Shown here: positions 22,410 to 64,000 of the stretch, piece after piece
Numbering within the stretch: the first letter of the stretch is position 1
Layout of the letters: every line of letters starts with the position of its first letter
Source of the DNA: a plasmid
Sequence record: NZ_CP014527.1
Length of the DNA: 64,000 bases
Reading direction: 5' to 3' (one strand)
The notes under the pieces: generated by a model
Database searches by the model: none
The model's input: the letters and a program-made list of their open reading frames with translations, nothing else
Told to the model about the DNA's origin: nothing
Program-made: the position numbers and the translations under genes

Positions 22410-22463
22410 CGGGCTTTAACAGTTCTCTTGAAATCTATCTAAATGTGTGTATATCTATTTGTT

Positions 22464-42792: not shown

Positions 42793-43410
42793 ATGGTTTC
42801 GCGAGTTCTGTTTGTTGATGACGAACAAAACGTTCTGTCTGCCCTTCGCCGTACATTCCACGGAGAGTTCGAGCTGGAGACAGCGGGGAACGCCGTGGAA
42901 GCCATGCGCCTTTTCCTAGATGGGGAACGCTTCGCGGTTATGGTAACAGATATGGATATGCCAGCTGTCAACGGCTTGCAGCTTCTTGAACAGGTCCGGA
43001 AACATTCTCCGCGTACCTGCCGTATTGTCCTGACAGGAAAACCGAACGCCGATGCCGCAACACAGCTTCTGTCAGACGGCTTGGTTTTCCGCTACCTCCT
43101 CAAACCCTGCACACCTGCAAAACTGCGTGACATTATTCGCGAGGGCATTGTTTGCTATGAACAAGCCAGCCTGCGCAGCAACAATGCACGGCATTTTGAT
43201 ACACCCGCGGCGGAATCACGCCATGTACGACAAACCCAAGTTTATCGCTTGCGTAATGGGGATGAGGTGGCAGCCAGCGTCCTAGATCGGGATGGACGGG
43301 TTCTTGTTTCCAGCGGTACTGTCCTTGACCAAGATCTCCTGAGCAAACTCAGAAAGCTGCTGGAAGAAGGCCGTATAGGAGAAAACCTGACCATTTACAG
43401 CACCCACTGA
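42793..43410 (+). CDS. Response regulator (REC domain + ~85-aa uncharacterised C-terminal domain)
   Basis: 'VLFVDDEQNVLSALRR...VMVTDMDMPAVNGLQLLEQVRKHSP...RIVLTGKP' CheY-like receiver with phospho-acceptor Asp context. Confidence 0.75.
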   Translation: MVSRVLFVDDEQNVLSALRRTFHGEFELETAGNAVEAMRLFLDGERFAVMVTDMDMPAVNGLQLLEQVRKHSPRTCRIVLTGKPNADAATQLLSDGLVFRYLLKPCTPAKLRDIIREGIVCYEQASLRSNNARHFDTPAAESRHVRQTQVYRLRNGDEVAASVLDRDGRVLVSSGTVLDQDLLSKLRKLLEEGRIGENLTIYSTH

Positions 43411-43427
43411 GAAATGGAACCAGTCCT

Positions 43428-48202: not shown

Positions 48203-48694
48203 TCATCGCCCCAAAGCACGGTCTACCTGTCGGCTCAAGTCGTCTTTTTGACGCTGCAGGGCATCAAGACGCCGTTTCTTTTCCGGGGCTGGTGTTACCG
48301 GATCGCTCCGCAACTGGGCAATCTTTGCTTCTAAGGACGCTATTTCTGCCTTCAGATCATTGTTACGCCCCTTGGCTTTCTCAAGCCTACCCTTTAACGC
48401 ACGCAGCTCTTTCTCAAGCTGGGCATAGCGCTTCTCTGCAGCAGCACGATCTTCTGTAACAGACGCTTGTTCCTGCTGATTCCGGTCGTATTCACGTTTC
48501 TTCTGCGTGTTGAGGTCCTGCTCATTCTCTAGGGCTTCCTGCCTCTCCTTGACCCGTTCCTCATAGCCCCCGGACGCCAGATGACGAACACCGGACAAGA
48601 AGCCACCCTGGGCAGGATCCGTGTTCGATGCGCACCCCGCCAACAGAACACCAAAGGACACAACCAATCCACGACATACCAACCGGGAAAACAC
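48203..48694 (-). CDS. Coiled-coil lipoprotein
   Basis: GTG start at 48694 preceded by SD GGAGAG. Lipobox 'MFSRLVCRGLVVSFGVLLAGC'. Remainder Glu/Lys/Arg/Ala-rich coiled coil. Upstream ATG alternatives would overlap the preceding gene. Confidence 0.5.
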   Translation of the reverse strand: MFSRLVCRGLVVSFGVLLAGCASNTDPAQGGFLSGVRHLASGGYEERVKERQEALENEQDLNTQKKREYDRNQQEQASVTEDRAAAEKRYAQLEKELRALKGRLEKAKGRNNDLKAEIASLEAKIAQLRSDPVTPAPEKKRRLDALQRQKDDLSRQVDRALGR

Positions 48695-48710
48695 TGTCTT
48701 CTCTCCTGCC

Positions 48711-49418
48711 CTAACCAATGCGGGATACCTTGCGACGCTGGACAAGACCATCCAGGTCTTTCTCAAGAACAGAGATCTGCTGTTCCAGACGCGATATTTC
48801 GGCATCCATTGTCGCAAGTTTCTGTTTTGATCCCTGCGTCTTCCCACGCGCAATGGCATATTCCTCGTGTCTCTTCTTAAGGTTTGCGACCGTCTGTTCC
48901 AGATACTTGGTATTGTCATCAACATCAGCAAGCTGGGTACGGGCCTTCTCGCGACTGATCTGCCCGGCTGCAATCTGTTTCTCCAGACGCTCGATTGTTT
49001 TTGTATCTGTTGCAATAACCTGGCGACTGGCATCAATCAAATCAGCAAGCCGCTGGTTGTCAGCACGAACATCGGTGGTCATAGCTTCCAGACGCTCTTC
49101 TGTCGAAGCATACTCTTCCTGCTTGTCTGCAACATAGTATCCTGCCGCACCACCAACAGCCGCACCGGCCGCACAGCCCAAGGCAATGCCACGACCACGC
49201 TCACCACCCCCGCGCCCAGAAGCCAGCACACCAATCAGCATGCCCGCCACGCAGCCCAAGGCCGCACCTTCCGCAAGCGTTTGATTAAACGTTGCAGCCT
49301 GCTCACGCATACGCTTCTCAGCCGGCGTCATGGATGCCTCATCCCGCGTTGTCACACACCCGGACAACAACAGGCTGATCCCAAGAATAAAGGCCGTTAC
49401 CTTCCCCGCTACCCTCAT
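48711..49418 (-). CDS. Lipoprotein with glycine-zipper segment and coiled-coil C-terminus
   Basis: Lipobox 'MRVAGKVTAFILGISLLLSGC'. Gly-zipper 'AALGCVAGMLIGVLASGRGGG...GCAAGAAVGGAAGYY'. Then coiled coil. Confidence 0.6.
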   Translation of the reverse strand: MRVAGKVTAFILGISLLLSGCVTTRDEASMTPAEKRMREQAATFNQTLAEGAALGCVAGMLIGVLASGRGGGERGRGIALGCAAGAAVGGAAGYYVADKQEEYASTEERLEAMTTDVRADNQRLADLIDASRQVIATDTKTIERLEKQIAAGQISREKARTQLADVDDNTKYLEQTVANLKKRHEEYAIARGKTQGSKQKLATMDAEISRLEQQISVLEKDLDGLVQRRKVSRIG

Positions 49419-49438
49419 ACATAACCTCTTGCCGACTG

Positions 49439-50962
49439 CTACAGTTTAACAAAGTCCTCAAGCCAAGCCTTTCGGCGAATCTGCTGGTTCGTACGATATA
49501 CCAGAACGTGTGATAGATGGCGATCGATATACGGTAAAAGGTGAGACAAGCCCAGATTCTTCATCTCGACAACCAGAATACTCTTTTGCCGTACCAAAGT
49601 GGCCTCGTCATACTCTTCGGCCGTACGAACAACAGTATCAGCGTAATACCTCAGATTATCCTGCAAAGCCGCCGTATTTTCATCAAGCTGTTGACGGTAG
49701 CTTGATGCTCGCTCCCCATCGGGGTCGCTGTTGTGCTGGCTCTTCCAGATTGATTCAAGCTGGACAACCCACTTCCCATCATCGGACAGTTTCTGCCCAA
49801 GAAAGGCCCCCATCCTGAGCGTGGTGCGTACAGCCCGGTCGCGAGCCTCATCACGGGCGGCCAGATCCGCTTTCAGCGTATCACCTATCTCGCGCAAACG
49901 ACGTTCCAGAGCCGGGTCAGCAACCGTGTCAGCCAGAAGAGACAAATCCGCAGACGGTGTTTTAGCTCGTGGCCCCTCATCCCCGCCTGCTTCTGATCCC
50001 AAATGGTTCCACGCATCCTGTACCGACTTTGCGGTGGCCCGGGACGTCAGTGCCGGAACGGACATCACAACACGGAAACCTGTTGTTGCTGCCCGGCGTG
50101 GCCCCGACGCATCAAAGAAAGGAATCTCGGAGCGCAGGGACGTGCGTATGTCTGCTTCTGCAGTCATATAATGCCCCCCACGGACAACAAAACCGCCTGG
50201 CTGACCGTGATACCGTCCAAGTCGAACAAAATGAAAAGGATCCAGCACAATCTCGTCCAAGTTACCCAACATATCATGCAAGCCCATTGGACCAGGCTCG
50301 AGAAGGCCAACAAACTGTGGCTTACCATTGGCAGATTGCGTGCCGGCATACCAGACATGGCGCGACAATGATTCCTTGATGGGAAAAACAGGCTCGTTAA
50401 AATCAGCAGGGGATACGGATGCACCACCCCGGGCCGCATATTCCCACTCGGTCTCGGTAGGCAGACGGACAAAACCGGCCTCATCTCCCTGACGTGGAAG
50501 AGAGTCCGGCTGTGTTTGCCGAAGCCAAGTGGTCAACTTCTCGGTAAAAGACAGCGCATCGAACCAGCCAACAGCCCCCTGGGGCAACCGGCCCTGAGGT
50601 CCGGGAGCAGGACAGCCGGACCCCATGACAGACTGATATTGAAGAACATTGGTTTCATACCGCGCCATCAGGAAGTAGGTCTGAACCGGGCTGTCACGAA
50701 ATCCCCCCGCCAACCATTCGGTTCGTGTGCCCTCAAGATAGCCTGGACCGCCGGCGGGACTGCCAAGGACAAGCCGCCTGTCACCCAAGGGGCCATCAAC
50801 CGGTATCGCCACCTTCCGGAAGGCCATGGCCCCGTCACAGGGCAACGGAATGATGACATCATCCTGCATAGGCTTCGGATTATAGTACTTCTCATCCCAT
50901 CGTGCCCACGTTGCCGATGAGGAACACAAGAAGAGCAGGAAGACAAAAAAGAACCTAGACAT
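49439..50962 (-). CDS. FGE-sulfatase/SUMF1-domain protein (formylglycine-generating-enzyme fold) with ~180-aa C-terminal extension, secreted
   Basis: Signal peptide 'MSRFFFVFLLFLCSSSATWA'. FGE-fold hallmarks 'TETEWEYAARGG', 'GLHDMLGNLDEIV', 'VVRGGHYM'. Confidence 0.7.
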   Translation of the reverse strand: MSRFFFVFLLFLCSSSATWARWDEKYYNPKPMQDDVIIPLPCDGAMAFRKVAIPVDGPLGDRRLVLGSPAGGPGYLEGTRTEWLAGGFRDSPVQTYFLMARYETNVLQYQSVMGSGCPAPGPQGRLPQGAVGWFDALSFTEKLTTWLRQTQPDSLPRQGDEAGFVRLPTETEWEYAARGGASVSPADFNEPVFPIKESLSRHVWYAGTQSANGKPQFVGLLEPGPMGLHDMLGNLDEIVLDPFHFVRLGRYHGQPGGFVVRGGHYMTAEADIRTSLRSEIPFFDASGPRRAATTGFRVVMSVPALTSRATAKSVQDAWNHLGSEAGGDEGPRAKTPSADLSLLADTVADPALERRLREIGDTLKADLAARDEARDRAVRTTLRMGAFLGQKLSDDGKWVVQLESIWKSQHNSDPDGERASSYRQQLDENTAALQDNLRYYADTVVRTAEEYDEATLVRQKSILVVEMKNLGLSHLLPYIDRHLSHVLVYRTNQQIRRKAWLEDFVKL

Positions 50963-52169
50963 CACGCAGACTCTCCGCTGGCTCAAGCGCCAGAATCCGA
51001 AGCATCGCAACCGCCGCCGACAAGGCAGACAGAACCAAAGTCAGAAGGGTAGCGATCAAAACGGACCAAAGGTCAAGATCACACACAAACCCCTCTCCCG
51101 ACAGATTGGTCGTCAAGGTTCTGTTGAACAAAGCGGCCACAATGGCATACAGCACAAGTGACACAGCAATGCCGCATACCGCCACCAAAAGCGCACGCGT
51201 TACCGGGAACAGGGCTGCAGAACGACCACCAAAGCCGACAAGACGCAACAAGGCCAGATCACGCTTTCGTCGCTCGACATCAGCCCATAATCCTGCTGCC
51301 ATGGACAAGACAAACCCACCCGTTGCCAACAATGCGAGAACAGAAAAAATGTAGGTCAGAACCCGGTCCACAGCCAGCACCATCTCGATATCATCGGCAC
51401 GTGTTCTAACTTCCATCCCCTCCGCACGAAGACGGGCTGCCAAAGTAACAACACCATCAAGATCACGCGCAAAAAGCCGTGCACTGGCAAAAGAGCGTGT
51501 ATCCATATTCGCGGGGTCTGACAGTGTATCTGTACGTCCGTCACGCCAGTCCTCGGCGGCAACCAGCAAGGACAAGGCAACAAAGGCAGCAGGCCTTGGG
51601 AAACGATCTTCGGATAGGATAGCGGCAACAACCAACGGCAACTTTATGACTTGCCGTTCTCCAGATACCGTACGGGTCAAAAAACCTGTCAAGGCATCCT
51701 CTTCCTTGACCCCCAGCCGATCTGCTGCCGCCCGGCTCAGAACGATCCGGTCAAAGCCAGATGGAAAAAGCCCAACCGGCAAAAACAGTGGATCACCGGG
51801 GCCGGAAGGTACAAGTTCCATCCCTTCGACCGAGCGACCAGAAGCCGTACGCACATCCAGCGTTGCCGATAGGGAACGGGTCCGCGGCATCACAAATCCA
51901 ACCTCTGGCAACGCCTTCAAGTGGCCGAACCAGGCCGGACCCAGTCGATAGTTCCCGACAAGCAGAATTTCAAGATTCCGTGGATCTTGGAGAAGACGGG
52001 ATCGCAGGGTCTCGACAATACCGGTTTTCAGGCCTAGAAGGACAAGAAGCGGCGCCATAACCGCAGCAAGAGCCAAGATCTGGCACATCGCCACACGCCA
52101 GTCATGGCGGCAATCGGCCCACGATAACCAGATAATACGCCAGGCTATCACGGGGGAGCTCCTTTCCAT
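50955..52169 (-). CDS. ABC transporter permease (FtsX/MacB/LolC-like, 4-TM with periplasmic domain)
   Basis: 404 aa. N-terminal TM 'ILALAAVMAPLLVLLGL', large periplasmic segment, C-terminal 3 TM. Overlaps the ATPase gene by 22 nt. Confidence 0.75.
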   Translation of the reverse strand: MERSSPVIAWRIIWLSWADCRHDWRVAMCQILALAAVMAPLLVLLGLKTGIVETLRSRLLQDPRNLEILLVGNYRLGPAWFGHLKALPEVGFVMPRTRSLSATLDVRTASGRSVEGMELVPSGPGDPLFLPVGLFPSGFDRIVLSRAAADRLGVKEEDALTGFLTRTVSGERQVIKLPLVVAAILSEDRFPRPAAFVALSLLVAAEDWRDGRTDTLSDPANMDTRSFASARLFARDLDGVVTLAARLRAEGMEVRTRADDIEMVLAVDRVLTYIFSVLALLATGGFVLSMAAGLWADVERRKRDLALLRLVGFGGRSAALFPVTRALLVAVCGIAVSLVLYAIVAALFNRTLTTNLSGEGFVCDLDLWSVLIATLLTLVLSALSAAVAMLRILALEPAESLRDV

Positions 52170-52858
52170 GTAAAAAGGGTCCGGGAACCAGAAGTATCCT
52201 GAGCCGAAGATGCAACCAGTGTTGGCAGCTCCATACTGCCAACAAGGGACTGGTCGTGACTGACCAGAACCAGAGCCGATCCGGATGCTTTCACCAATTC
52301 CAGCAACAGGGCCATGACATCAGCAGAACGGGCCGGATCAAGCGCCGCCGTTGGCTCGTCAGCGAGCACAAGATCCGGGCGATACAAAAGGGCGCGGGCC
52401 ACGGCCACCCGTTGGCGCTCGCCAATGGACAGAGCCGAGGGCATCAGGGATACAAGGGGGCGCAAACCAAGCACATCAAGAAGATAGTCTTCCCATGCGG
52501 GGTCAAAGACAGTTAGCTCTCGCGCGGAAAGCCGTATGTTGGCCAAAACATCCACGAAAGGCAGCAATCCCCCGGTCTGGAGAATGTAACCAAGATGTTC
52601 GGCCCTGACCCGGGCCAAAACATCCTTCCGCCGCGACGCCCACAAAGCTGGAATATCAACACCCCGGACCTGAAAGATGCCTGCCGATCCCGGTTGCAGA
52701 ACCAAGCCAAGAATATCCAGCAAAGTGCTTTTGCCACAGCCACTGGGCCCCGTCACAATCATGGCCTGCCCGGAAGACAAGGTCAGGGACGGAAGGAAGA
52801 AACGGAACCCCCCGCGAGACCCTTCTAAGGACCGGATATCCAGAACACACGTGTTCAC
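52148..52858 (-). CDS. ABC transporter ATP-binding protein (LolD/MacB-like)
   Basis: Walker A 'GPSGCGKSTLLD', signature 'LSIGERQRVAVARAL', Walker B 'LVLADEPTAALD'. Confidence 0.9.
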   Translation of the reverse strand: MNTCVLDIRSLEGSRGGFRFFLPSLTLSSGQAMIVTGPSGCGKSTLLDILGLVLQPGSAGIFQVRGVDIPALWASRRKDVLARVRAEHLGYILQTGGLLPFVDVLANIRLSARELTVFDPAWEDYLLDVLGLRPLVSLMPSALSIGERQRVAVARALLYRPDLVLADEPTAALDPARSADVMALLLELVKASGSALVLVSHDQSLVGSMELPTLVASSAQDTSGSRTLFTWKGAPP

Positions 52859-54852
52859 GGCATGGCATCCAGAGGAACCGGGTACACCGCCTCTCCGGGA
52901 TCAAGACCGCCATCTAGGGAAACCCAGCGGCTGACATCATCATTATACACCTGGTACAGGCGCAGTTTGCGTTCTATCTCGTCAAGGAAAGCCTGCTGCT
53001 GGCTGATACTCCAGCTGGACCATGTCTGCTGGTCAAGGTCCAGAACCTTGGATCGATAAGGCAGGTCGTCCAGATATTCTCCAAGCAAACCCAAATCCGC
53101 CAACCGACGGGCTTGGTCACGTTTGACAATGTTAGGATCACGACCCAGCGTCGCCGCAACAGACCGCAGTTGGGCAAAGAAATCGCCCGGTGACAGTTGT
53201 GCCGCCTGCCCTGCCGTACTGATTGTCTGCAACACCTGCTGCAAATCCGAAAGCTGGTTCCGGGTCAGCAGAACGCGAACTTCAGTTGTTGGTATCTCAG
53301 GATGCTCAAGGTCACGGTCGGCAATCCATGCCGAAAAGAGAGGCGGAGCCTGTGTTCCCTCCTTACGACCAAGCCAGGCCAGCTGCATGGCATGCCCCAA
53401 CATGGCCGCGTCCTGACGAACACGCGACAGGCTGCCTCCTGATTGCACATAGCCGGGATCTGCTGTCCGGGCAGCACCCGGAACCGACTCACCGCGCCGG
53501 GCAGCACCAACCTGCTCAACAATCGCATCGCCCAAAGCATCCACCATTGACCCAAAAACATCCACAGCCCCTGATTCAACAGGATAATACAGTGGACGCT
53601 GCAAAAGGGGATGACGGGTCAGATCCTTGTACTGGGCCTCTGCTTCAGCATGATTAGCTTTTCCGGCCGGAGTTCTCAGGTGGAGGGCATAAACGGCAAG
53701 CCCACGGTGCTGGGCCTCAAGACGAACCTGGGCCGCATCCAGTCGAGTTGACGACAGGGGATCCTGACCCCGCAAGGCACCAGCATCGGTGATAAGGATC
53801 ACATACCGCCCACCGAAAGAAGACCATTGGATACGCTCCACTGCCGTCATGATGCCAGCATAGGCATCTTCGGAGAAACGCGCAGAAGACACAGTTGCCG
53901 CCTTCAGGTCAGCAACACGATCCAAGAATTCTTTACCGCTGCGCACCTCGGAAGGATCGGCAAACACCTTGGACACATAGTCCAGCTCAGGGGTGCGATC
54001 AACATTGGAACGAAAGGCAATCATGCCGAACCGTACCTGATCCAGAAGCCCCGCCTTCTCGATATGACCGTAAATCCGCCGCACTGCTTCACGGGTACGG
54101 TCGATGTAGGGCCCCATTGACACTGTGGAATCAATCACAAACACAACAGCCGCCGTAAAGTTCCGCAACGCACTGACCCCACCGGAAGAAGGGGTTGGTG
54201 CAGCAACAGCTTTGCCCTCATCACGACTAACGGAAGCAATTTCCAGCATCCGGACACGGTGCCCATGGCCGCTGAAGGTTTCCTCCGCCTGAAGGATGGG
54301 AAGAAGGTAAAAATGGCTGGCAAGATCAACGTAGTTTTCAGGCTCTACAGACACGACATGGGGATCATGCCCACCTGCCAGAACAGCCTTGCGCAAGGGA
54401 TCGATGCGCAGAGCCGGTTGGTCGGCTTCAACAACGGAGGCAAGGCTGTTCCTATCCCGGAACAACAACGCACGCTCGCGTCCGGACGGATTGGTGAAGG
54501 CCAATGTCAGCTGCTGCTTCCAAGGCAATGTAAATCCAGCCTCAACCCAACCATCAACATCGCCGTTTGCTGTCAGGCCAACCTCAAGCCAAGGGACAGC
54601 CCCTATTATCTTGCGGTCATAAACATAGAAACGGGTCAGGGCTGGCTGCTGCATACCCGGTCCATCACCCGGACTGCGCTTGAGGACAGCACCCGGACGT
54701 GTCAGCACCCTTTCATAAAGGGTTGCCTTACCCGGCATGATCAGGGGAGAGCGTGCGTATACGGTAGGTGCCTGACCAATGCACAGTATCACGGCAAAGG
54801 ACACCAGCATGCGAGCTAGCGCGCGATAAATGGCAACTTTGGCCCGCACCAT
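52855..54852 (-). CDS. Secreted von Willebrand factor A (vWA) domain protein
   Basis: Start taken at internal Met with signal peptide 'MVRAKVAIYRALARMLVSFAVILCIGQAPTVYA'. MIDAS 'VVFVIDSTVSMG' ... 'ILITDAG'. Confidence 0.75.
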   Translation of the reverse strand: MVRAKVAIYRALARMLVSFAVILCIGQAPTVYARSPLIMPGKATLYERVLTRPGAVLKRSPGDGPGMQQPALTRFYVYDRKIIGAVPWLEVGLTANGDVDGWVEAGFTLPWKQQLTLAFTNPSGRERALLFRDRNSLASVVEADQPALRIDPLRKAVLAGGHDPHVVSVEPENYVDLASHFYLLPILQAEETFSGHGHRVRMLEIASVSRDEGKAVAAPTPSSGGVSALRNFTAAVVFVIDSTVSMGPYIDRTREAVRRIYGHIEKAGLLDQVRFGMIAFRSNVDRTPELDYVSKVFADPSEVRSGKEFLDRVADLKAATVSSARFSEDAYAGIMTAVERIQWSSFGGRYVILITDAGALRGQDPLSSTRLDAAQVRLEAQHRGLAVYALHLRTPAGKANHAEAEAQYKDLTRHPLLQRPLYYPVESGAVDVFGSMVDALGDAIVEQVGAARRGESVPGAARTADPGYVQSGGSLSRVRQDAAMLGHAMQLAWLGRKEGTQAPPLFSAWIADRDLEHPEIPTTEVRVLLTRNQLSDLQQVLQTISTAGQAAQLSPGDFFAQLRSVAATLGRDPNIVKRDQARRLADLGLLGEYLDDLPYRSKVLDLDQQTWSSWSISQQQAFLDEIERKLRLYQVYNDDVSRWVSLDGGLDPGEAVYPVPLDAMP

Positions 54853-54853
54853 C

Positions 54854-55888
54854 CTACTCTCCCAGATCACGCAGAACAGACTTCGCCACGTCATCACCGG
54901 AGGCTGCAGCCTTGCGCAACCATTCCAAGCCCTTTGTGCGACCATAACCATTCGGATCAAGAGCAAGAAGAATCTGGCCCAGCCTTCTTTGGGCTTCTGC
55001 ATGACCGGACAGCGCAGCCGGCTCGTACCAATAAGCTGCTGTTTCCGCATCCGGCTTTTCAATCGGGCTAGAACTTGGATGATACGTTTCGGGATCATAA
55101 AACCGCCCCAAGGCCAGAGATGCACCGGGGTGCCCTGACCGTGCAGCATACCGGTAGGCCAACATAGCCAGATCAGCCTTTTCACGGCGCATCAGATCAT
55201 CAGCCAAAGCAACCGTTGCATCCGAAGAAGGTGAGCTACCAAGAAATGCAGCCAGATCCTCGCGCGTTTTTACGTCTTCTGGTGCTGCACGGTATTCTCC
55301 ATCCTGTACAGGCGGAGGAACAAAGGGATCAGACGGGGCATGAGAACCATTCCAGTACCAGAAACCACCAACCACAACACACAAGGCCAGAACAAGAATG
55401 GCGGGAAGCGGGAACTTTGCCCGAGAAGAACCCAAACCGGAAACCGGTGTCGATTCTTCGACAGGATCAGGCAGAACAACCGGCTCCACCACGATCGGTT
55501 CAGGTAATGGCTCCGCATGCGGAGCCGGAGCATCCGCAACAGCAGCATGTGATGGATACAGACCTGTCACGCCCTGCACACCACGGACCATAATCCCGGA
55601 GTTTTCGACCGTCAGCTGAATACGGGCATTTGGCGGCAAGACAGCAAGACAATCCGTAATAAGCGGACCAAGAAAGGCTCTTCCGGTGTTGTCAAAATGC
55701 ACATCGTGCCAGCACTGCTCGGCCTGCCAACCCCCACCGGAGTTCAGAAAATCCTGCCCTTGGTTACGCAGGATCTGCACACGCCCATTTCCTGCGGGAA
55801 TCCCGGACACCTTGAGAACAGAATACCCTGGCCCACGCTCAATATCAGGGACAAGTTCAGCTTTTGACACCATAAACAACGGTTCCAT
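54854..55888 (-). CDS. Membrane-anchored Sel1-like repeat protein
   Basis: TM helix 'LPAILVLALCVVVGGFWYW'. C-terminal Sel1/TPR-like repeats 'AYRYAARSGHPGASLALGRFY', 'AAYWYEPAALSGHAEAQRRLGQIL'. Confidence 0.6.
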   Translation of the reverse strand: MEPLFMVSKAELVPDIERGPGYSVLKVSGIPAGNGRVQILRNQGQDFLNSGGGWQAEQCWHDVHFDNTGRAFLGPLITDCLAVLPPNARIQLTVENSGIMVRGVQGVTGLYPSHAAVADAPAPHAEPLPEPIVVEPVVLPDPVEESTPVSGLGSSRAKFPLPAILVLALCVVVGGFWYWNGSHAPSDPFVPPPVQDGEYRAAPEDVKTREDLAAFLGSSPSSDATVALADDLMRREKADLAMLAYRYAARSGHPGASLALGRFYDPETYHPSSSPIEKPDAETAAYWYEPAALSGHAEAQRRLGQILLALDPNGYGRTKGLEWLRKAAASGDDVAKSVLRDLGE

Positions 55889-55891
55889 CTA

Positions 55892-58576
55892 TCAGGAGAC
55901 AGGCGCCCCCTTCATGCGATCCAGAAGGCGCCCCAAACGGCGATTATGCTCCGGCCCAATCTCATTGCCGGCAAGGTGACCAGCATTGGACACAGCCATT
56001 TCACGAAATGCATCTATCCAATCGACCAGATACAATGCTGGATAGTTGATCGGTGCATCTGGCAGATCGGGGGGATCAGCCACAGGAGCAGGGGCGGAGA
56101 ACAGGCGACGCCCCGCAATATGTGAGGAAACAGGCCGCTTGTCGGTAGGGATACTCCCGAAGCCAAGCCAGTCTACCCAAGATCCAAGACATGTTGCCGC
56201 AACCAATGTCTGCCGATCTGCCAGTTGCCCACGGGTTGTCGAAGCCCTTTCCTCGGCTTCCCGCAGGGCAGCGATCAGCTGAGCCTCCAAGCGACACCGA
56301 GTCATACCTGTTATCAGCTCATCGACCAGAATTTGCAGGGTGTCCCCGGTCATACCCAAGAAACGGTGCATCTGCATATTGGCAGGAATATCGCGTATAC
56401 TCCGCATCCAGTCAGACATAACAGCACGGGCATAGCGAGCTGCCCGCCCCCCCTTCCCGGGTGAAGAGGCAGGGGCAGAGTCCGTAACAACCTGGCCAAA
56501 ACCAGACAGATCAAGGCTGAACAGACTCCCCGTCTCGAGGTCAGCATGATCCTGCCCTTCGTCAGCACCTGTTTCCTCTAGGTCGTAATACAACGTACGC
56601 AGCCGTTCCTGTGTTGGCTGCAAGGCATGAACAAGCTCACCAAAGCGGTCGAGCCGCTGCTGCAAGGCAAGCTGCACCTGACGGGCCAGATCCTGTTTGT
56701 GGGCAACGGCACCCTCACCATCAACCTGATAGAAAGGACCAAGAACAGATGAGACCAGACGCACCCGGATATCGGACACCTGCTCGGCAATACGCCCCAG
56801 CTTTACATCCGGTTTTGCCACCGTGCCCAGATAGTCCGCCAAACGCGTCATGCCCCCGTCATCAAGTGTCAAAGCAGCATCCCATGCCACAGCAGGGTCA
56901 CGGACATGGCGCCTGACACTGGCATCCTCGACAAAAGTGCCACGCATGGCCACAAGACGTTGTTCCTGTCCTTTGGCAAGGGCAACTTCCTGCCGTCCCT
57001 CCATTTCAATAACACCCGGAGCCATTCCCGGTTTGCGTACCAGAAACACCGTGTCAAAGGGCTGGTTCGGGGCCCAGGTGTTGACCCACTCAAACTGTTC
57101 AAACTTCTCCAGCAACGTCAGGCGCATCATCCCGCCCCATCCCTCGCGGATCAAATCCATGGTTTCATCGGGACGGGGTTTCAGACGCTCGTCAAACATG
57201 GTGATTGTCCACACCAACCCGGACTCCCGGCGGGAACGCTCTTCCGGCGTTGCCCCCTGCGTTGACTCGATCCATGCCTGCAGCGCCGGCCCCAGATCAT
57301 TGACATCGGACTGCTTGTGGCAAGGCGTACATAGGACCAGGGCATTCATTTCTTGGTCTTCGGTATACCGTTCAAAAAGGTAGGCAACCTTGCCGCGCAG
57401 AACAAGTTCTGCAACCGGATCACGGCCTTCAAGGCGCTCTGCCACATCTGCCAAACGCCCCACATTCAGGCGACCGCGGTACCCGGGAAAATCAAGAAGA
57501 TCAACCTGTTCAAGCAGGGACGCCTGCGGTGGGTCCGCCAGGCAAAAAATCATCTCGCAGGCCAAGGCCGCCAGAACGGGACGAGCAACCGAAACAGCGC
57601 TTTCCTTCCCCAAATCCTGATGGGTTACAACCTGAACCATCCCCATGTCATCACGCCCGAGACCCGCCAGCATATCAACATTCATGATGCTGTTTTTCTG
57701 GCTGAATCCACCCGCCCCATCCGGCACAACTAAGGCATCCAGTGCGGCAAAGACCCGTGGAGCATGACCGATTGACCGTAACGTCTCTGCCAGATGGATC
57801 CAGACAGCTGTAAATTCCGGAATATCACCCCACAACAGAGAGAATAGCTCCGCCCGACCCCGTGTATCCAAGCGGGGGGCAAGATCTACAGCCCGCAACC
57901 AGAACCCAGCCTTGTACGGCTCCATGTCCCGTGGGAAGCGGCTGTTAAAATAATCCATCAGATCAACAACATCAGAAGCCCCCATCCCCCCTGTTGGACC
58001 AAGTGATACCTTGCGGGTAACAGCATCCAAGCGCAGGGCGATAACAGCCGGATCCGAACAGACGCTGACCTTCTGACGATCAAAGTCCATAAAGAAGCTG
58101 TTACCAATAATCCGGACCAGATCCGCTTCGCTGAAAAGACGCAAGGCAACAGGAAAACCCGCTGGTGTTGGCAGACGACGGCGCGTGAAGCGGGTGACGA
58201 TGCCGGTTGCTTCCTTGCCTCCTCCTGGTGGATTAATATGGGCAATGAAGTTCAGTCGCTGACCATCCATATCTGTTTCAAGGGCCCCGCCCTTTCCACG
58301 GGCCAAGGCCGATATCAGATAAGATTTCCCCGCTTGGGACAGACCGAAAAAACCAACAGCCACGGGCTGTGCCACAGCGGCAGCCAATCTTCTGGCACGA
58401 CCACCCTCGCGGTGCAGATGAATACTGATTCCATCTGCCTCCCGGTCAAGCCGCGCACTGTCAGGCCGTACGTCCCGAACCCAAGAAATTCCTTCGTCCA
58501 CGCCATCGGCAAGTGCCTTGCAGGCCTCAACCAGTCCCTCAGGAGTAGCCGTCACAACTGCGGGCCCTTTACTCAC
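55892..58576 (-). CDS. srfC: SrfC-like putative virulence-factor family protein
   Basis: 894 aa. P-loop-like 'GFFGLSQAGKSYLISAL'. Third gene of an srfA-srfB-srfC-ordered trio. Family call by size, order and motif, recalled not computed. Confidence 0.55.
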   Translation of the reverse strand: MSKGPAVVTATPEGLVEACKALADGVDEGISWVRDVRPDSARLDREADGISIHLHREGGRARRLAAAVAQPVAVGFFGLSQAGKSYLISALARGKGGALETDMDGQRLNFIAHINPPGGGKEATGIVTRFTRRRLPTPAGFPVALRLFSEADLVRIIGNSFFMDFDRQKVSVCSDPAVIALRLDAVTRKVSLGPTGGMGASDVVDLMDYFNSRFPRDMEPYKAGFWLRAVDLAPRLDTRGRAELFSLLWGDIPEFTAVWIHLAETLRSIGHAPRVFAALDALVVPDGAGGFSQKNSIMNVDMLAGLGRDDMGMVQVVTHQDLGKESAVSVARPVLAALACEMIFCLADPPQASLLEQVDLLDFPGYRGRLNVGRLADVAERLEGRDPVAELVLRGKVAYLFERYTEDQEMNALVLCTPCHKQSDVNDLGPALQAWIESTQGATPEERSRRESGLVWTITMFDERLKPRPDETMDLIREGWGGMMRLTLLEKFEQFEWVNTWAPNQPFDTVFLVRKPGMAPGVIEMEGRQEVALAKGQEQRLVAMRGTFVEDASVRRHVRDPAVAWDAALTLDDGGMTRLADYLGTVAKPDVKLGRIAEQVSDIRVRLVSSVLGPFYQVDGEGAVAHKQDLARQVQLALQQRLDRFGELVHALQPTQERLRTLYYDLEETGADEGQDHADLETGSLFSLDLSGFGQVVTDSAPASSPGKGGRAARYARAVMSDWMRSIRDIPANMQMHRFLGMTGDTLQILVDELITGMTRCRLEAQLIAALREAEERASTTRGQLADRQTLVAATCLGSWVDWLGFGSIPTDKRPVSSHIAGRRLFSAPAPVADPPDLPDAPINYPALYLVDWIDAFREMAVSNAGHLAGNEIGPEHNRRLGRLLDRMKGAPVS

Positions 58577-58588
58577 CGTCTGCCTCCA

Positions 58589-61500
58589 TCAACCAACAAC
58601 ACTGCCAGTATCCAGCCAATAGCTGTCTTCACCAATTCCCTGTGTCAACAAGGTGAAAAGGCGGATCTTCAGGGCATCCCGGCTGAATGTCTGCCCGTCG
58701 CGGTCACCTCCTCTCACTGAAATCCGGCTGATTTCCAGTTTTTCAGCCCGACCGCGACCGGGACGCAAGGTAACATCCAGCACCGTAGCATCGCCTTGGC
58801 CACCACCATATAAAGCCGTATCAGCCTTGCGATTATTTCTATTGAAATCAATCAGGTATAATGGACTTGCTCCCCAACGAGGAGCCGAAAGCTGGCGGAA
58901 ACCAAGAAGGGTCCGCCCCCGAATTTCAAAACTGACATCCTCGGGCAACTGATAGTCAGGATTATCCCAGTCAATATCGCGATAATAGATATCCTCGTCC
59001 TTGATAAGACGATTGCTGTCCATCAAGCCAACATGACGCACAGTGGAATACAAACGGAATACATTGGAACGGAAGAAGAAGCCGGGAATACGCCCCTGCC
59101 CCAGAACACAAAGCATAGCCCCGACAGCTGCCGTTGTCTTGGGATCATCGATGCGGGCATTACGGTGGAAGGGATACCACGTTCCCGTCCGATAACCATG
59201 CAGAACCACCAGACGATCCGGAGGCAATGCAAGCAGACTGCGGAACAGGGCTTGTACGCCCGGCAAACGGGATGGACGTCCGGACAGAAGCAGGATATCG
59301 CAGTCATATGCATAAACAAGTTCACACAAGGCCTGCACAGGCTTGCAGATCTCCATACCACCGCTCAGGAACAAACGGTGCAAGCGCCCCGGGTCGACAA
59401 CAAGACGAACGGCCAAGAAGTTGAAGGGTAGCCCTCCCCCCCCTTCTGCCCGTGCAACACCGGCAGCAAACCAGCCAAGCAAATCTTGAGGCACAGAAGG
59501 ATCACTCTTCCCGCCATCTGCCAACAGTTCTGCCACCGTCAGAGACTGTACATCCGCCCCGACAACGGGGTCATAGGCTTCACACCTTTTCAGAACCTGC
59601 AAGGCCAAAGGATAAAGAACCTGGAGTGTCAGCTGCTGGCGCTTGACCTGATCAGGAACCGGAACCGCCTCATTCCCAGCAAGACGCGACAGGACAACAG
59701 CCGGCGTTACAACACCGTGATCCTTCAGGGCCTGCTCAAAGGCAGGAAGGATCACCTTGCGAATCACATCAAGAACAATATCGTCCCCGGCGATTTTAAA
59801 GCCATCGCGGAACCGCTGTTCCGGCAGAATATAAACATTGCCCCCGCGGCCATCATCTAGGGTGTAATCTGTCACCACAAGATCAGTTGTACCGCCACCA
59901 ATATCAATTGTTGCAACCCGCAGGCGGCGTCCTGGGTCATCGGCACGGGGCTTGCGCATGACGTGGAAGAAGTCCTCCGGTCTACCACCGAAATTATTGA
60001 CCGTTTCCGAATACAGCCACACCGCCTGCGCACACGTGGCCTCATCCCACTGGATACGTTGCTCGGGCAAGGCCGGCCAGCATGCATCCTTCTGCTCCTG
60101 GGTATTGGTGTCCGGATCTCCCGGGAACCATCCCATAGAGCGCCAAACCAAGCCAACGGCCTGTTCCAGGGCATCGTGAAAAATCTGTTGTTCCGGACGG
60201 GGCATGGAGGGAGGAACCGTCAGAATAACAGAACGCAGACGGCGCGGCAGATTGGCATGGCTCATCTTCAGGCGCTGGCCGGTACTATTCATCTGTACCA
60301 GAGCCTGAACCAGCACCTCAGCCAACATGAATGTCATCAGCGCACTGCGACTGTAGTGCGGCACAAAAACCTGGATCTGTTCCTCTGGCAGCAGAGTAAA
60401 CAGCGCCTTTCCTTCTTCATTGATCAGGTTCCCGAAGGGAGCCGCCGTTGCCAAGGGTTCTGTTTCAGAGCGGTTGAAAGCATCGTTGAAACGCCAGCCA
60501 GACTCATAGCGTTCGTCATCCCACAGATAACGCTTGGGGCTTGAAAGACCGGTTGATCCCTCGCTCCCCTTGCGTCGCGCAGCCAAGCGTGCTGCCTCGG
60601 GCCCAACGCGCGCAAGGGTTGGCCACAGGAATGCATCATTGCGGCCCGAGAGAACAGACTGGTCAACCCGGCCAAAACTTGCCTCGGCAAACTCCAGACG
60701 GCTTTCAAAGGGGTCTGTATACACCTGATGGGCACGCCCCAGATCCCGCAGTTCAAGCGTATAGCTCAATTTCAAACCGTTTGCCTGCTGGGGATGATCC
60801 TCGATCAGAATGCCGCAGGTGCGTGAATTACCAACATCCAGAACCATATCAACCGGAATGGACGGCAAAACATCATCGGAACGATTGGAGAGGATCTTGA
60901 TGCGCGGAGGACGAACCAAGGACCCAATCAAACTTATGATATTCAGATAATGGGTATAGTGCAGACCGGCCTTGATGCCCGCCTCAATATCCTCACGCGA
61001 CAGACGCAGCCGGGGGGTCGCACCGTCCGAAAACTCCTGCTCCAGCCAGCCAGAAACCCACCTCTGGGCCATAAACCAAGCAGGATCCTCACCCTGCCAA
61101 GCCAGAGCAAAACGTACGCCCCCTTCGACATCACCCAGCGTCGGCGCCAGATAGGCCGTACCCAAACGTTCCTCTGTTACATTGGTATCAAAGGCCAGAA
61201 CAAGACGATGTGTATATCCATCGCGGTCCTGTCCAGGCTCAAGAGGAAAAAGGCGTGCACGGGCCCAATTAGCTGGCCCTTGAACAAATGTTGTGGCCTG
61301 CTGACGCAGGAACGGGACAGGAAGCCACGTATCAGACAGCAGAGCAAAACTGTCTCCGACAGATGTCTCAAGTTCCGGATGATCCTGCATCGGCAGACGT
61401 GACCGGGGATGCAGTGTTGTATCCCGAACAGGATCAGCCTCTAGCCGAACAGGTACCGGACTTTCCGCCACCCGGGCGAAACGACCAGGGGACTCACGGC

Positions 61501-61597
61501 GGGCATCAAGCGTCAAACCAAAATCCACAAACTGGATCCCGGTTCGCATGATCAGCGTGATTTCCTCTTCCGACCGCCGGGTAACATCCGCCAGCAT
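58589..61597 (-). CDS. srfB: SrfB-like putative virulence-factor family protein
   Basis: 1002 aa, the characteristic size of SrfB, between SrfA-like and SrfC-like genes. Confidence 0.55.
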   Translation of the reverse strand: MLADVTRRSEEEITLIMRTGIQFVDFGLTLDARRESPGRFARVAESPVPVRLEADPVRDTTLHPRSRLPMQDHPELETSVGDSFALLSDTWLPVPFLRQQATTFVQGPANWARARLFPLEPGQDRDGYTHRLVLAFDTNVTEERLGTAYLAPTLGDVEGGVRFALAWQGEDPAWFMAQRWVSGWLEQEFSDGATPRLRLSREDIEAGIKAGLHYTHYLNIISLIGSLVRPPRIKILSNRSDDVLPSIPVDMVLDVGNSRTCGILIEDHPQQANGLKLSYTLELRDLGRAHQVYTDPFESRLEFAEASFGRVDQSVLSGRNDAFLWPTLARVGPEAARLAARRKGSEGSTGLSSPKRYLWDDERYESGWRFNDAFNRSETEPLATAAPFGNLINEEGKALFTLLPEEQIQVFVPHYSRSALMTFMLAEVLVQALVQMNSTGQRLKMSHANLPRRLRSVILTVPPSMPRPEQQIFHDALEQAVGLVWRSMGWFPGDPDTNTQEQKDACWPALPEQRIQWDEATCAQAVWLYSETVNNFGGRPEDFFHVMRKPRADDPGRRLRVATIDIGGGTTDLVVTDYTLDDGRGGNVYILPEQRFRDGFKIAGDDIVLDVIRKVILPAFEQALKDHGVVTPAVVLSRLAGNEAVPVPDQVKRQQLTLQVLYPLALQVLKRCEAYDPVVGADVQSLTVAELLADGGKSDPSVPQDLLGWFAAGVARAEGGGGLPFNFLAVRLVVDPGRLHRLFLSGGMEICKPVQALCELVYAYDCDILLLSGRPSRLPGVQALFRSLLALPPDRLVVLHGYRTGTWYPFHRNARIDDPKTTAAVGAMLCVLGQGRIPGFFFRSNVFRLYSTVRHVGLMDSNRLIKDEDIYYRDIDWDNPDYQLPEDVSFEIRGRTLLGFRQLSAPRWGASPLYLIDFNRNNRKADTALYGGGQGDATVLDVTLRPGRGRAEKLEISRISVRGGDRDGQTFSRDALKIRLFTLLTQGIGEDSYWLDTGSVVG

Positions 61598-61654
61598 GAC
61601 TATCCTTTCTCAGAAACTCAGGGCTACATTTCTATAAACATTCGGGCAGCTTGC

Positions 61655-63016
61655 TCAGTGACCGGACTGACGCCCTATATCAACATGGTACCGTGCTCCA
61701 TCGGGATTAATACCCTGACACCGGGCTTCGCCGTTTATATCACGATCACACACAACCTGTGACGGCGCAAACTCGCGACCATCGGGACAGCGGACAGGTT
61801 CTGCCTGATCGATATGCAAACGTCCTTGGTCCATACGAGCATTTCCGGGACCTATGCACACTACGCCGTCTCCGCGACGAATGGTCATGGTTCCAGCGCC
61901 TTTGTCAAAAGAATATTCCACGTCTAGAGGCAAACTTGTAGCGCCATCAACCAGACCGGTATGGGAACGCCATGTTCCATTGAGGAAATCAGTCTGCCCG
62001 CTTTGCAGCGCCTCAGGTGGAATATGCAGGGCCTCTGCACCAGAGGAAGCCTTATCGGGCGAAACAGACGGCGGTAAGCTTCCCTCCTCTGGTGATGATC
62101 CGGATGTGTCAGTCTCATCCGCTCTGTCTGCAGACGAGGACTCAGAGAGAGAATCTTTATCCGGCTCCACAGGCTGTTCAGTGCCGCCGGGTGGGGACGT
62201 GGCTGTCATGTCACCTTGTCCCGGATCAAGGGCAACCGCTTTTCCACTGGCACCATCAACGACAACAGCCTGCCGGAATGGAAGAAACGGAATAATGGAG
62301 TGTTGCTCTTCAAGAACAGTCCCCGACAGCCAAGACGGCAACAAGCCCCTCTTCTCCTCAGGAAGGGACAACGCCCACCACCGCATAAACCAGATTAGAA
62401 GTAGCAGAAACAGCAGAGCAAGAGGAGCCGCAAGTAGAAACCACAACCACCACGGCCACCCCAATCCAGCTCTATCGGCCGTTGGCACAGACGCTGGCGT
62501 GGTCTGCGCAGGGGACAAGGACAAACAGACCAAGACATCCTTACCACCTGGTACAGCCAATAGCGAGAAACCCCAGAATGTCACCACAGGCTGCCCATCT
62601 ACCAAGTAAATATGTGTTTCATCCGGAATAAACAGGGCAAACGGCAATAAGCGGGCAAACAGCTCCAAGTCTCTGGACATAGCGGGCCGATCCGCCAAAA
62701 GGCCCACGTGAGATGAAACACGGTGACGTGCAGACTGAAGTCTAGGAAGAACTGCTTGCTGCTCCTGTAAGGTCGCAGCGGACCAAGGTATAACTCTTGA
62801 CCCTGCAGGCGCATACCAGTCGATTGTCACACCATCAGCCCTGATTTGTGGGATCGCCATCAGGGAAGCAACATCCTCTCCAATCTGGCGTCTGATGGTT
62901 GAGCGCATTTGCAAGGCCGTCGAGAACAAGGATGTTCCGGAAATACCCAGCATACAAAAATCACGCAAGGAGCCTGTTCGTAACAGCGGACCTGTACCAT
63001 TCTGATCATGTGCCAT
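61655..63016 (-). CDS. srfA: SrfA-like protein with central TM segment and acidic Ser/Pro-rich region; start uncertain (63016-63115)
   Basis: First gene of the trio. TM 'WWLWFLLAAPLALLFLLLLIWFMRWW'. Assignment mainly by synteny. Confidence 0.4.
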   Translation of the reverse strand: MAHDQNGTGPLLRTGSLRDFCMLGISGTSLFSTALQMRSTIRRQIGEDVASLMAIPQIRADGVTIDWYAPAGSRVIPWSAATLQEQQAVLPRLQSARHRVSSHVGLLADRPAMSRDLELFARLLPFALFIPDETHIYLVDGQPVVTFWGFSLLAVPGGKDVLVCLSLSPAQTTPASVPTADRAGLGWPWWLWFLLAAPLALLFLLLLIWFMRWWALSLPEEKRGLLPSWLSGTVLEEQHSIIPFLPFRQAVVVDGASGKAVALDPGQGDMTATSPPGGTEQPVEPDKDSLSESSSADRADETDTSGSSPEEGSLPPSVSPDKASSGAEALHIPPEALQSGQTDFLNGTWRSHTGLVDGATSLPLDVEYSFDKGAGTMTIRRGDGVVCIGPGNARMDQGRLHIDQAEPVRCPDGREFAPSQVVCDRDINGEARCQGINPDGARYHVDIGRQSGH

Positions 63017-63059
63017 CGTATCCCTGCCCCGGGCTCTATCAGCTCTCAATATCGTCATC

Positions 63060-63926
63060 TCATTCACACCCCTGCGGTACAGGTGCATGGCCACTTGCGG
63101 CGCGGAACAAATCATCCCAGCTTTGGCCGTCCTTTGGAAGGATCAGCTTTCCCCCCGTTGTTTCGGCCATACATCGCCCATCACCAGAACCATCAACACT
63201 AATCACATTAATACGGATGTTGGGCTTCCGTGCTTTCAGGGCACGGGCAACAGCGCAAGGATCACCCCCGCAACTGTCTTCACCGTCAGTAACGACAACA
63301 ATAGTCCCGGGGACCCTGACCCCATCAAGCATGGTTCCGGCGCGCTCCAGACCACGGGCCAAGGGCGTACCCTGACGGGGTGTGATCGAACGCAGCTGTT
63401 CCAACAAGCGCATTCTCTCATCAGCTTTGAAGAACTTGTAATTATCTGTTCCCTCGCAACGCCCGAAAACCAGAAGACCAAGATCAATATGACGTGGTAG
63501 TGTCTTGGTCAGATCTGCCACGGCATCCTTGGCTGCATCAAGTCGAGATCTCCCACCCTGTAACTTCGAAAGCGCAAAGCTGTTCCCACCTATAACCTGC
63601 CGCATGAGCATCTGAACCTGCGATGGTTTCAAGTCTGCTGACAAGCCCATACTGCCTGAAGCATCAAGCAAAACAGCTACTTCTGGGTTCTCCCACGCTT
63701 TTGCTTTGGGGGGACAAGAGGCAGGCCGCGTATCCTTGCTTGCCTGTTTTTGTGGGGTATCATCGGGCTTGAATGGCAATATAGGTGGCTTCACAGGTGG
63801 AACCGGCGGTTCTACAACATCTTCAACCGAATTCAGATCACCGGAAGGAGGAGGCCCGGGAACCGGGGCAGGCAAATCCAACATCGCATTTTGACTTGGT
63901 ACACGACACTCAGCCAAACGGCGCAT
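63060..63926 (-). CDS. vWA-domain protein (N-terminus may extend beyond the listed start / window)
   Basis: MIDAS 'VAVLLDASGSMG' ... 'GTPLARGL' ... 'IVVVTDGEDS'. Pro-rich N-terminal region. Confidence 0.7.
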   Translation of the reverse strand: MRRLAECRVPSQNAMLDLPAPVPGPPPSGDLNSVEDVVEPPVPPVKPPILPFKPDDTPQKQASKDTRPASCPPKAKAWENPEVAVLLDASGSMGLSADLKPSQVQMLMRQVIGGNSFALSKLQGGRSRLDAAKDAVADLTKTLPRHIDLGLLVFGRCEGTDNYKFFKADERMRLLEQLRSITPRQGTPLARGLERAGTMLDGVRVPGTIVVVTDGEDSCGGDPCAVARALKARKPNIRINVISVDGSGDGRCMAETTGGKLILPKDGQSWDDLFRAASGHAPVPQGCE

Positions 63927-64000
63927 AACCTCGCGCTCAGCATCAAGAATATCCGCAATTAATGCGTTTTGATCATCATCTGATACAGGTGTCTGCGCTA

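Follow-up and report, generated by a model that had tools for sequence, protein, structure and literature searches.

The 64,000-nt stretch of plasmid DNA examined in this study (sequence record NZ_CP014527.1; hereafter the window) comes from Haematospirillum jordaniae, an alphaproteobacterium of the family Novispirillaceae, and contains at its right end an operon that includes the genes for SrfA, SrfB, and SrfC. These proteins have been labelled "virulence factors" since approximately 2000 without an assigned biochemical function. The SrfB encoded here has 100% identity to SrfB of H. jordaniae.

Organization and conservation of the srf operon

Positions 48203-64000 of the window hold eleven tightly packed minus-strand open reading frames (ORFs) in the order g1, srfA, srfB, srfC, and g5 to g11, where g1 encodes a protein with a von Willebrand factor type A (vWA) domain (Table 1). 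A preliminary description of this DNA had listed ORFs of these sizes in this order, all of which were recovered at the same positions, and had the vWA gene beginning at 63926. The latter position is not the start of the gene: no in-frame stop occurs from 63926 to the window edge, and g1 continues for approximately 586 nt outside the window, with the full gene on the source contig (L001:8530-10056) encoding 508 amino acids (aa). Because the full g1 extends beyond the window end, the operon is approximately 16.4 kb long. The proposed identities of SrfA, SrfB (1270 bits, positions 1-991 of 992 in PF07520), and SrfC (1002 bits, positions 2-878 of 878 in PF10139) were borne out by profile matches, as were the ATP-binding cassette (ABC), FtsX, and formylglycine-generating enzyme (FGE) assignments of g7, g8, and g9. 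The locus thus contains the SrfABC trio and belongs to the extended srf cluster. Of the two vWA proteins that had been described, g1 is upheld by its VWA_2 match (E 4e-11 to 1.8e-10), while g6 matches VWA only below the Pfam cut-off (1e-3) but carries a D-x-T-x-S/TD motif conserved across orthologues. Similarly, g5 had been called a Sel1 membrane protein; its transmembrane (TM) helix is found, but its Sel1 match reaches 24 bits against a Pfam cut-off of 30.7, with further weak matches to MerG/ExoR Sel1-type models.

Table 1. Genes of the srf operon in the window and their collinearity in related loci (loci with a collinear gene/loci with enough flanking sequence)
Gene	Product	Position	Strand	Match or feature	Collinear loci
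g1	3' part of 508-aa SrfA-N-like/TM/vWA protein	63060..64000	-	VWA_2; frame open at window edge	23/67
srfA	SrfA	61655..63115	-	NCBIfam SrfA_fam NF040486, 7.3e-78	72/72
srfB	SrfB, Hsp70-like ATPase (predicted fold)	58589..61597	-	PF07520, full length	
srfC	SrfC, dynamin-like NTPase (predicted fold), G domain and helical bundles	55892..58576	-	PF10139, full length	69/69
g5	Bitopic membrane protein, Sel1-like repeats	54854..55888	-	TM helix; Sel1 match below cut-off	at least 49/67
g6	Secreted 665-aa periplasmic protein, central vWA domain	52855..54852	-	Weak VWA match, conserved motif	62/64
g7	ABC ATPase, LolD/MacB/FtsE class (TagT-like)	52148..52858	-	ABC_tran, 2.9e-20	59/63
g8	FtsX-family permease, 4 TM (TagS-like)	50955..52169	-	FtsX, 1.5e-9	59/63
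g9	Secreted FGE/SUMF1-fold protein (TagR-like)	49439..50962	-	FGE-sulfatase, 2.9e-25	58/62
g10	Glycine-zipper/coiled-coil lipoprotein (TagQ-like)	48711..49418	-	Lipobox LLSGC, VI_TagQ match	at least 46/61
g11	Second coiled-coil lipoprotein	48203..48694	-	Lipobox LLAGC	

Several gene starts were revised. The likely start of g6 is ATG 54852, which lies behind GGGAGAG and directly after the g5 stop codon, and those of g9 and g11 are ATG 50962 and GTG 48694, each preceded by a GGAGAG Shine-Dalgarno sequence, the latter 16 nt past the g10 stop. The true start of SrfA may be ATG 63058. With these starts, intergenic distances across the operon range from -56 to +57 nt, and the consecutive srfA, srfB, and srfC genes are separated by gaps of 57 nt and 12 nt. 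Judging from this spacing, it is plausible that all eleven genes share one transcript; a promoter/terminator consensus scan of the region gave counts near the shuffled expectation and was uninformative.

An SrfB profile scan of one genome per species identified more than 593 loci, and in one search SrfB matched more than 2,000 protein clusters defined at 90% identity. Neighbourhood counts were taken from the 80 closest loci (47-64% identity) by tblastn of the window proteins, with denominators restricted to loci having enough flanking sequence. All 80 belong to Alpha-, Beta-, and Gammaproteobacteria, with hosts including Novispirillum, Magnetospirillum, Defluviicoccus, many Pseudomonas, Azotobacter, Halomonas, and Burkholderiaceae, as well as Haemophilus, Aggregatibacter, Pasteurella, Gilliamella, Proteus, and Rouxiella. 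Free-living hosts are numerous (e.g., Methylococcus, Magnetospirillum, Defluviicoccus, Azotobacter, Halomonas). The order SrfA-SrfB-SrfC-g5-vWA-ABC-FtsX-FGE-lipoprotein is common to Haemophilus, Pseudomonas, Gilliamella, Proteus, and others, and within the cluster g6 is second only to SrfB in conservation (46-70% identity). SrfB is also encoded on 143 PLSDB plasmids, 114 of them from Klebsiella. The same gene set is annotated on the Klebsiella pneumoniae plasmid pKPN-065, where the g6 counterpart is named "vWA domain-containing protein" and where a TagQ-like glycine-zipper gene lies upstream of srfA (L083:7968-10461), together with a "tellurite resistance domain protein" gene and a hypothetical gene; the cluster therefore tolerates rearrangement of its outer-layer genes. 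Two reduced variants depart further from the common arrangement: Salmonella contains srfABC alone, without the outer-layer genes, and a Methylobacterium plasmid variant lacks the ABC and FGE genes and has SrfB and SrfC together with proteases and tetratricopeptide repeat (TPR) proteins.

Two of the outcomes that the preliminary description had named as speaking against it did not occur: the Srf profiles, like those for vWA and FGE, match the ORFs, and the vWA, ABC, FGE, and lipoprotein partners of SrfB proved to be strongly conserved (62/64 loci for g6, 58/62 for the FGE gene). Since the downstream genes are collinear in approximately 58/62 informative loci, the arrangement goes beyond chance, and chance juxtaposition of the cluster genes can be excluded on the basis of gene order. 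The earlier view that SrfABC is unusually embedded here has to be abandoned, as these collinear partners form its usual context and this context has already been described. In Deltaproteobacteria associated with hosts, the majority of which have no type VI secretion system (T6SS), srfB and srfC adjoin tagQ, tagR, tagS, tagT, as well as a "ppkA" (Campbell et al. 2013, PMC3608642), and a 2026 preprint reports that in Haemophilus and Xenorhabdus srfABC has Lol-like ABC, vWA, and SUMF1 genes as neighbours. The preliminary description had also passed over g7-g10 as a Tag-type module, which by sequence family is the usual companion of SrfABC. Its cautious reading of the operon as an envelope-associated assembly of unknown role is supported by the profile matches and the conserved neighbourhood.

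Encoded proteins and neighbouring genes

Comparison of predicted structures suggests that SrfB is a cytoplasmic Hsp70-like (actin-fold) ATPase. The SrfB profile returned zero matches among Protein Data Bank (PDB) sequences, but a search of the PDB with its AlphaFold2 model (predicted local distance difference test (pLDDT) 80.7, predicted template modelling score 0.82) gave 194 matches at E<1e-3, of which the top 50 were all Hsp70 or Hsp110. The best Foldseek match was DnaK (4b9q, 7e-14), with Ssb, BiP, and Hsp110 among the others. The model has the two-lobed nucleotide-binding domain of Hsp70, and full-length ATP-state DnaK aligns with it better than chains containing only the nucleotide-binding domain, though the root-mean-square deviation is high. 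In addition to the fold, SrfB shares the nucleotide-binding motifs of Hsp70, with DVGNSRT (phosphate-1), DIGGGTTD (phosphate-2), and GRPSRLPG (adenosine) invariant in 40 SrfB sequences. It differs from Hsp70 in its low identity (10-13%), large insertions, and an additional N-terminal domain of approximately 230 aa (about residues 1-230), and residues 296-385 are disordered in the model. SrfB has no signal peptide or other export signal, and profile scans of the operon proteins identified no J-domain or GrpE partner.

The model of SrfC (pLDDT 85) was assigned to the bacterial dynamin-like proteins by two independent structure-comparison methods, and SrfC is accordingly predicted to be a cytoplasmic member of this group. 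The matches take in both the G domain and the helical bundles, at 9-14% identity. As in other members of the dynamin superfamily, the predicted structure combines a G domain with P-loop and DxxG motifs and helical neck/trunk bundles, a fold resembling those of BDLP (Nostoc), SynDLP, Campylobacter DLP1/2, IniA, LeoA, DynA, and the mitofusins/EHDs. The P-loop GxxxxGKS and the DxPG switch II motif are invariant, while the G4 motif (HKQSD) is atypical. SrfC contains no export signal and no obvious membrane paddle or TM segment. Sequence comparison with the PDB yielded only marginal matches to the P-loop of guanylate-binding proteins, and the PADLOC dynamin (Eleos) models did not match. Bacterial dynamin-like proteins such as DynA, IniA, and LeoA have roles in membrane repair, fission, and vesiculation.

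Three of the encoded proteins cross the inner membrane once. SrfA consists of a cytoplasmic SrfA-N domain, a TM helix (226-244), a disordered linker, and a periplasmic lipocalin-like domain in which FLNG.W (here FLNGTW) and four cysteines are invariant in 19 orthologues; matches of the SrfA profile to PDB sequences were confined to the TM/linker segment. A degenerate kinase-like fold for SrfA-N and the periplasmic FLNGxW/four-Cys domain have been described in the 2026 preprint. The g1 protein has the same plan, with a cytoplasmic SrfA-N-like domain, a TM helix (164-182), a Pro-rich linker, and a periplasmic Cys-rich vWA domain whose DxSxS...T...D metal ion-dependent adhesion site (MIDAS) residues are invariant in orthologues. 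Its N-domain and TM helix are homologous to those of SrfA (BLASTP 6e-8; hhalign probability 99.9, E 1.4e-33, 192 columns), and g1 is, by these alignments, an SrfA paralogue. In g5, a cytoplasmic N-domain of approximately 155 aa and a TM helix (159-177) are followed by periplasmic Sel1-like repeats.

The topology of g1 recalls that of PpkA, which in Pseudomonas aeruginosa is activated by TagQRST, a system that senses envelope damage and responds to attack by type IV secretion systems (T4SS) and T6SS (PMC7817224). Homology of g1 to PpkA was considered and rejected. None of the 21 matches from a word-indexed vWA-domain search had a kinase domain; the ten longest among the best 150 phmmer matches contained VWA_2 only and no Pkinase domain; and a profile scan of the full g1 gene found no Pkinase match. 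The exhaustive phmmer search with this domain gave 5,788 matches; 110 of 119 full-length relatives of the g1 vWA carry the SrfA-N-like domain, so that proteins with the SrfA-N-like, TM, vWA arrangement form a family of their own. Because the relatives checked have no kinase domain and most have the SrfA-N-like domain, the resemblance to PpkA is topological only.

The remaining genes include those of the proposed outer layer of the system. The g6 protein has a signal-peptide-like N-terminus, and its profile gave only a marginal integrin match among PDB sequences (E 0.37). The ATPase g7 has a complete set of catalytic motifs (Walker A GPSGCGKST, signature LSIGERQR, Walker B LVLADEPT, H-loop SHD), and its best NCBIfam matches are LolD (124 bits, cut-off 307.75), DevA, FtsE (115, cut-off 265), and MacB (109, cut-off 966), all below the equivalog cut-offs. 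The permease g8 has 4 TM helices, of which TM1 and TM2 are separated by a periplasmic domain of approximately 220 aa, a MacB/LolC-type topology. As the cut-offs were missed, g7/g8 were rejected as LolCDE or MacB equivalogs. The g9 protein contains a signal peptide, an FGE-fold domain, and a helical C-terminal extension of approximately 200 aa. At the place of what we take to be the C-terminal, Cys-containing active-site segment of FGE it has RGGHYMTAEADIRTS, a site at which 58 sequences show no conserved Cys. With the catalytic Cys pair absent from this segment, g9 was rejected as an FGE enzyme and is better regarded as a binding module; its nearest solved relatives are likewise non-FGE or non-enzymatic members of the fold (a Treponema denticola variable protein, PvdO, PorK/GldK).

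Both lipoprotein genes encode coiled coils, and g10 in addition a glycine zipper. The g10 protein matches the NCBIfam family VI_TagQ (NF041250) at 1.2e-13 over model positions 48-177, and VI_TagQ is the best family for 14 of 15 g10 orthologues, all far below the cut-off. By tblastn, g11 had no match in the remaining loci, the majority of which stop close to g10, and on this comparison it is lineage-specific. Similarity was not significant either to g10, of which g11 might have been a duplicate, or to the Klebsiella gene at the same position, of which it might have been an orthologue.

Outside the operon, a secreted trypsin-like peptidase (Trypsin_2, 4e-22; 47302-48195, +) converges on the operon end with 7 nt between the stop codons. 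A functional link between the two is conceivable, since the Methylobacterium variant (L084) holds a serine protease and a trypsin-like peptidase inside its srf cluster. Approximately 2 kb from the operon end, a signalling cluster (42748-46246, +) with genes for a PAS histidine kinase and two response regulators, one of which has an HDOD domain, could be a regulator of the operon. On the other side, just beyond the right end of the window and upstream of the operon (L001:5094-8392), lie genes for a RepC-like replication protein (RP-C, 1.9e-30) and for a 626-aa protein with a C-terminal XRE-type helix-turn-helix (HTH) domain that has no match in the other 80 loci; these neighbours suggest a plasmid- or island-derived context. 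Two plus-strand copies of an IS607-like element (3-1846 and 22443-24286) are located 22,440 nt apart, each encoding a 214-aa serine recombinase with a MerR-type HTH followed by a 400-aa TnpB/OrfB_IS605 protein with a Cas12f-like TNB domain, and are 100% identical over at least the first 300 nt. The window also contains an array of tandem 27-nt units (3673-4350), equivalent to a 9-residue repeat, within an ORF of 336 aa (3616-4626, +), whose copies are 60-83% identical in overlapping 300-nt register, and dispersed direct repeats at 16131-16339/20185-20393 (209 nt, 96% identity) and 3328-3490/9204-9366 (163 nt, 90%).

Potential roles of the operon

Considering the gene content, topology, conservation, paralogy, and fold assignments together, our tentative preference, held with somewhat less than even confidence, is that the operon encodes a self-contained envelope-spanning machine in which a trans-envelope damage sensor recruits a dynamin/Hsp70 membrane remodeller via SrfA-type adaptors. 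We infer its binding partners, direction of signalling, and output as follows. The outer layer would comprise the outer-membrane lipoprotein g10, the non-catalytic FGE-fold protein g9, and the g7/g8 ABC pair, together with the vWA/MIDAS domains of g6 and g1; the middle layer would be the three single-pass inner-membrane adaptors SrfA, g1, and g5; and the inner layer would be the cytoplasmic nucleoside triphosphatases (NTPases) SrfB and SrfC. Perturbation of the outer membrane or periplasm would alter the state of the Tag-like/vWA layer, and ATP hydrolysis by the ABC pair would act in mechanotransmission. The signal might then pass through the SrfA-type adaptors, whose kinase-like but non-catalytic cytoplasmic domains would recruit or release SrfB and SrfC with no phosphorylation involved. 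SrfC may remodel the inner membrane on site, by sealing, fusion, or vesicle scission, with SrfB serving as its assembly/disassembly ATPase.

The many free-living hosts of the cluster argue for such a cell-intrinsic role. In addition, mutation of srfC in Salmonella, where the operon is under FlhDC control, impairs swarming but leaves swimming normal, and this cell-autonomous surface phenotype supports the sensor-remodeller reading. The co-purification of SrfA with SrfB and SrfC (PMC6950479) also speaks for it. It is also important to note several points that weigh against it. The fold assignments come from predicted structures at 9-14% identity to their templates, and the sensing step, the membrane activity of SrfC, and the coupling of SrfB to SrfC are all proposals. 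The resemblance to Tag proteins is at the family level only, with g10 reaching 51 bits where the TagQ cut-off is 300, and the analogy with TagQRST breaks at its best-understood step, since no kinase, phosphatase, or FHA protein was found in the operon or by a Pfam scan of 19 flanking ORFs (22443-48195). Salmonella keeps srfABC alone, so that the trio can work or persist without the outer layer, and the Methylobacterium variant swaps the ABC and FGE genes for proteases and TPR proteins. Finally, the published claim for the SrfABC trio is that it is a toxin (PMC6950479).

An alternative that we consider unlikely is that the operon is an anti-phage or anti-invader defence system whose envelope layer detects adsorption, DNA injection, or conjugation and whose NTPases protect or sacrifice the membrane in the manner of the DynA/Eleos dynamins. 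Bacterial dynamins have been implicated in phage resistance, and SrfC is predicted to be dynamin-like; the cluster has spread horizontally, is patchily distributed and present on 143 plasmids, and in this genome adjoins RepC-like and insertion sequence elements. The response of TagQRST to T4SS and T6SS attack (PMC7817224) fits as well. However, PADLOC-DB 2.0 contained no match for g1, SrfA, SrfB, SrfC, g5, g6, g8, or g9 and only generic ABC and coiled-coil matches for g7 and g10, and the operon encodes no effector domain such as a nuclease. A Pfam scan of 19 flanking ORFs, limited to 22443-48195 and thus not reaching into the first ~22 kb of the window, found no neighbouring defence genes, and the conservation of ten collinear genes across classes at 47-70% is unlike that of fast-evolving defence islands.

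It is less probable still, and in our view improbable, that SrfABC is an exported tripartite toxin directed against insect or animal cells, with the ABC pair, an FGE enzyme, and the vWA proteins processing or exporting it, for example on vesicles. A dynamin-like SrfC could aid vesicle release, as has been proposed for LeoA, and the cluster is found in pathogens and on Klebsiella virulence-type plasmids. Xenorhabdus stockiae SrfABC expressed in Escherichia coli shows cytotoxicity towards cells of insects and mammals, and SrfA, SrfB, and SrfC co-purify as a complex (Sun et al. 2019, PMC6950479); the toxicity tests, however, were made with lysates or with purified recombinant proteins given at high dose, and not by natural delivery (PMC6950479). 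Lol-assisted, vesicle-mediated export of the toxin is proposed in the 2026 preprint, in which dynamin, Hsp70, and TagQRST are unmentioned. SrfB and SrfC are nevertheless cytoplasmic NTPases of 900-1000 aa with invariant nucleotide-binding motifs and no signal peptide, as is typical for proteins acting within the cell that makes them, and SrfA is anchored in the membrane. Without catalytic cysteines, g9 cannot be the proposed modifying enzyme, and transporters of the MacB/Lol type handle periplasmic or membrane substrates, not cytoplasmic proteins. The system is also common in free-living environmental bacteria. These results call into question both the exported-toxin reading and the enzymatic role proposed for the FGE-family protein.

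Lastly, the idea that the Tag-like genes regulate a T6SS or other secretion system elsewhere in trans, with proximity to srfABC being mere linkage, draws on their family-level homology to TagQRST and on the link to T6SS control raised by Campbell et al. (2013, PMC3608642), but it is highly improbable given that these genes are strictly collinear with srfABC in ~58/62 loci, that the same scan of flanking ORFs found no PpkA, PppA, Fha, or T6SS genes, that the g1 relatives checked have no kinase domain, and that most host-associated Deltaproteobacteria with the cluster have no T6SS (PMC3608642).

Comparison with TagQRST and other known systems

The cluster itself has been noticed before (Campbell et al. 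2013; 2026 preprint), while its mechanism has not been established in the literature. A search of a limited paper collection for SrfB with Hsp70, SrfB or SrfC with dynamin, and the family names found no paper on fold or mechanism. New in this study are the predictions of a dynamin-like SrfC and an Hsp70-like SrfB, the paralogy of g1 and SrfA, the likening of the last genes to TagT, TagS, TagR, and TagQ, and the absence of catalytic cysteines from g9. SrfA, SrfB, and SrfC are full-length members of the families known from Salmonella enterica and X. stockiae, which together with the srfABC/tag-like neighbourhoods of host-associated Deltaproteobacteria, Haemophilus parainfluenzae, and Klebsiella plasmids are the nearest known systems. 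Compared to other srf clusters, the copy in H. jordaniae adds g1, which is present in only a third of the loci (Table 1), and the apparently lineage-specific g11.

SrfC is encoded alongside a predicted Hsp70-like protein and a membrane adaptor, and not with a second dynamin. The g7/g8 pair resembles the mechanotransmission ABC systems MacB, LolCDE, and FtsEX in combining a 4-TM FtsX permease with an intact cognate ATPase, but it has no adaptor or TolC-type partner and is dedicated to the srf cluster.

A further parallel is with TagQRST. TagR, TagS, and TagT belong to COG1262, COG4591, and COG1136 (PMC13584744), and the families of g9, g8, and g7, encoded together here, correspond to them at the domain-family level only, while g10 is a relative of TagQ but not an equivalog. 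At this family level, g7-g10 may be described as a TagT/TagS/TagR/TagQ-like module. The same four building blocks are thus found in both systems next to a single-pass protein whose vWA domain is periplasmic, in reversed gene order (here T-S-R-Q). Unlike PpkA, g1 and SrfA have no recognisable kinase in their cytoplasmic domains, and in contrast to the TagQRST-PpkA-PppA-Fha1 threonine-phosphorylation pathway of the P. aeruginosa H1-T6SS, the Srf cluster has neither a Hanks kinase nor a phosphatase, FHA protein, or T6SS, its presumed output being SrfB/SrfC.

It is possible, though we regard it as doubtful, that TagQRST-type modules are general envelope-damage sensors with interchangeable outputs, the Srf output being not a kinase cascade that activates a T6SS but an Hsp70-like/dynamin-like pair, recruited directly by pseudokinase-like adaptors with a single TM pass (SrfA and the paralogous g1), that repairs or pinches off inner membrane that is damaged. 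If this is true, SrfABC would be a bacterial machine of a new class, acting in membrane repair or vesiculation, which would account for an orphan "virulence factor" family that is 25 years old and occurs in thousands of Proteobacteria as well as on Klebsiella plasmids. Taken with their near-constant TagQRST-like neighbour, the predicted folds of SrfC and SrfB replace an orphan annotation by a hypothesis, on envelope-damage sensing and membrane remodelling, that can be tested. The Srf cluster also provides a second, kinase-free context for the TagQRST module, which bears on what TagQRST senses and how it signals.

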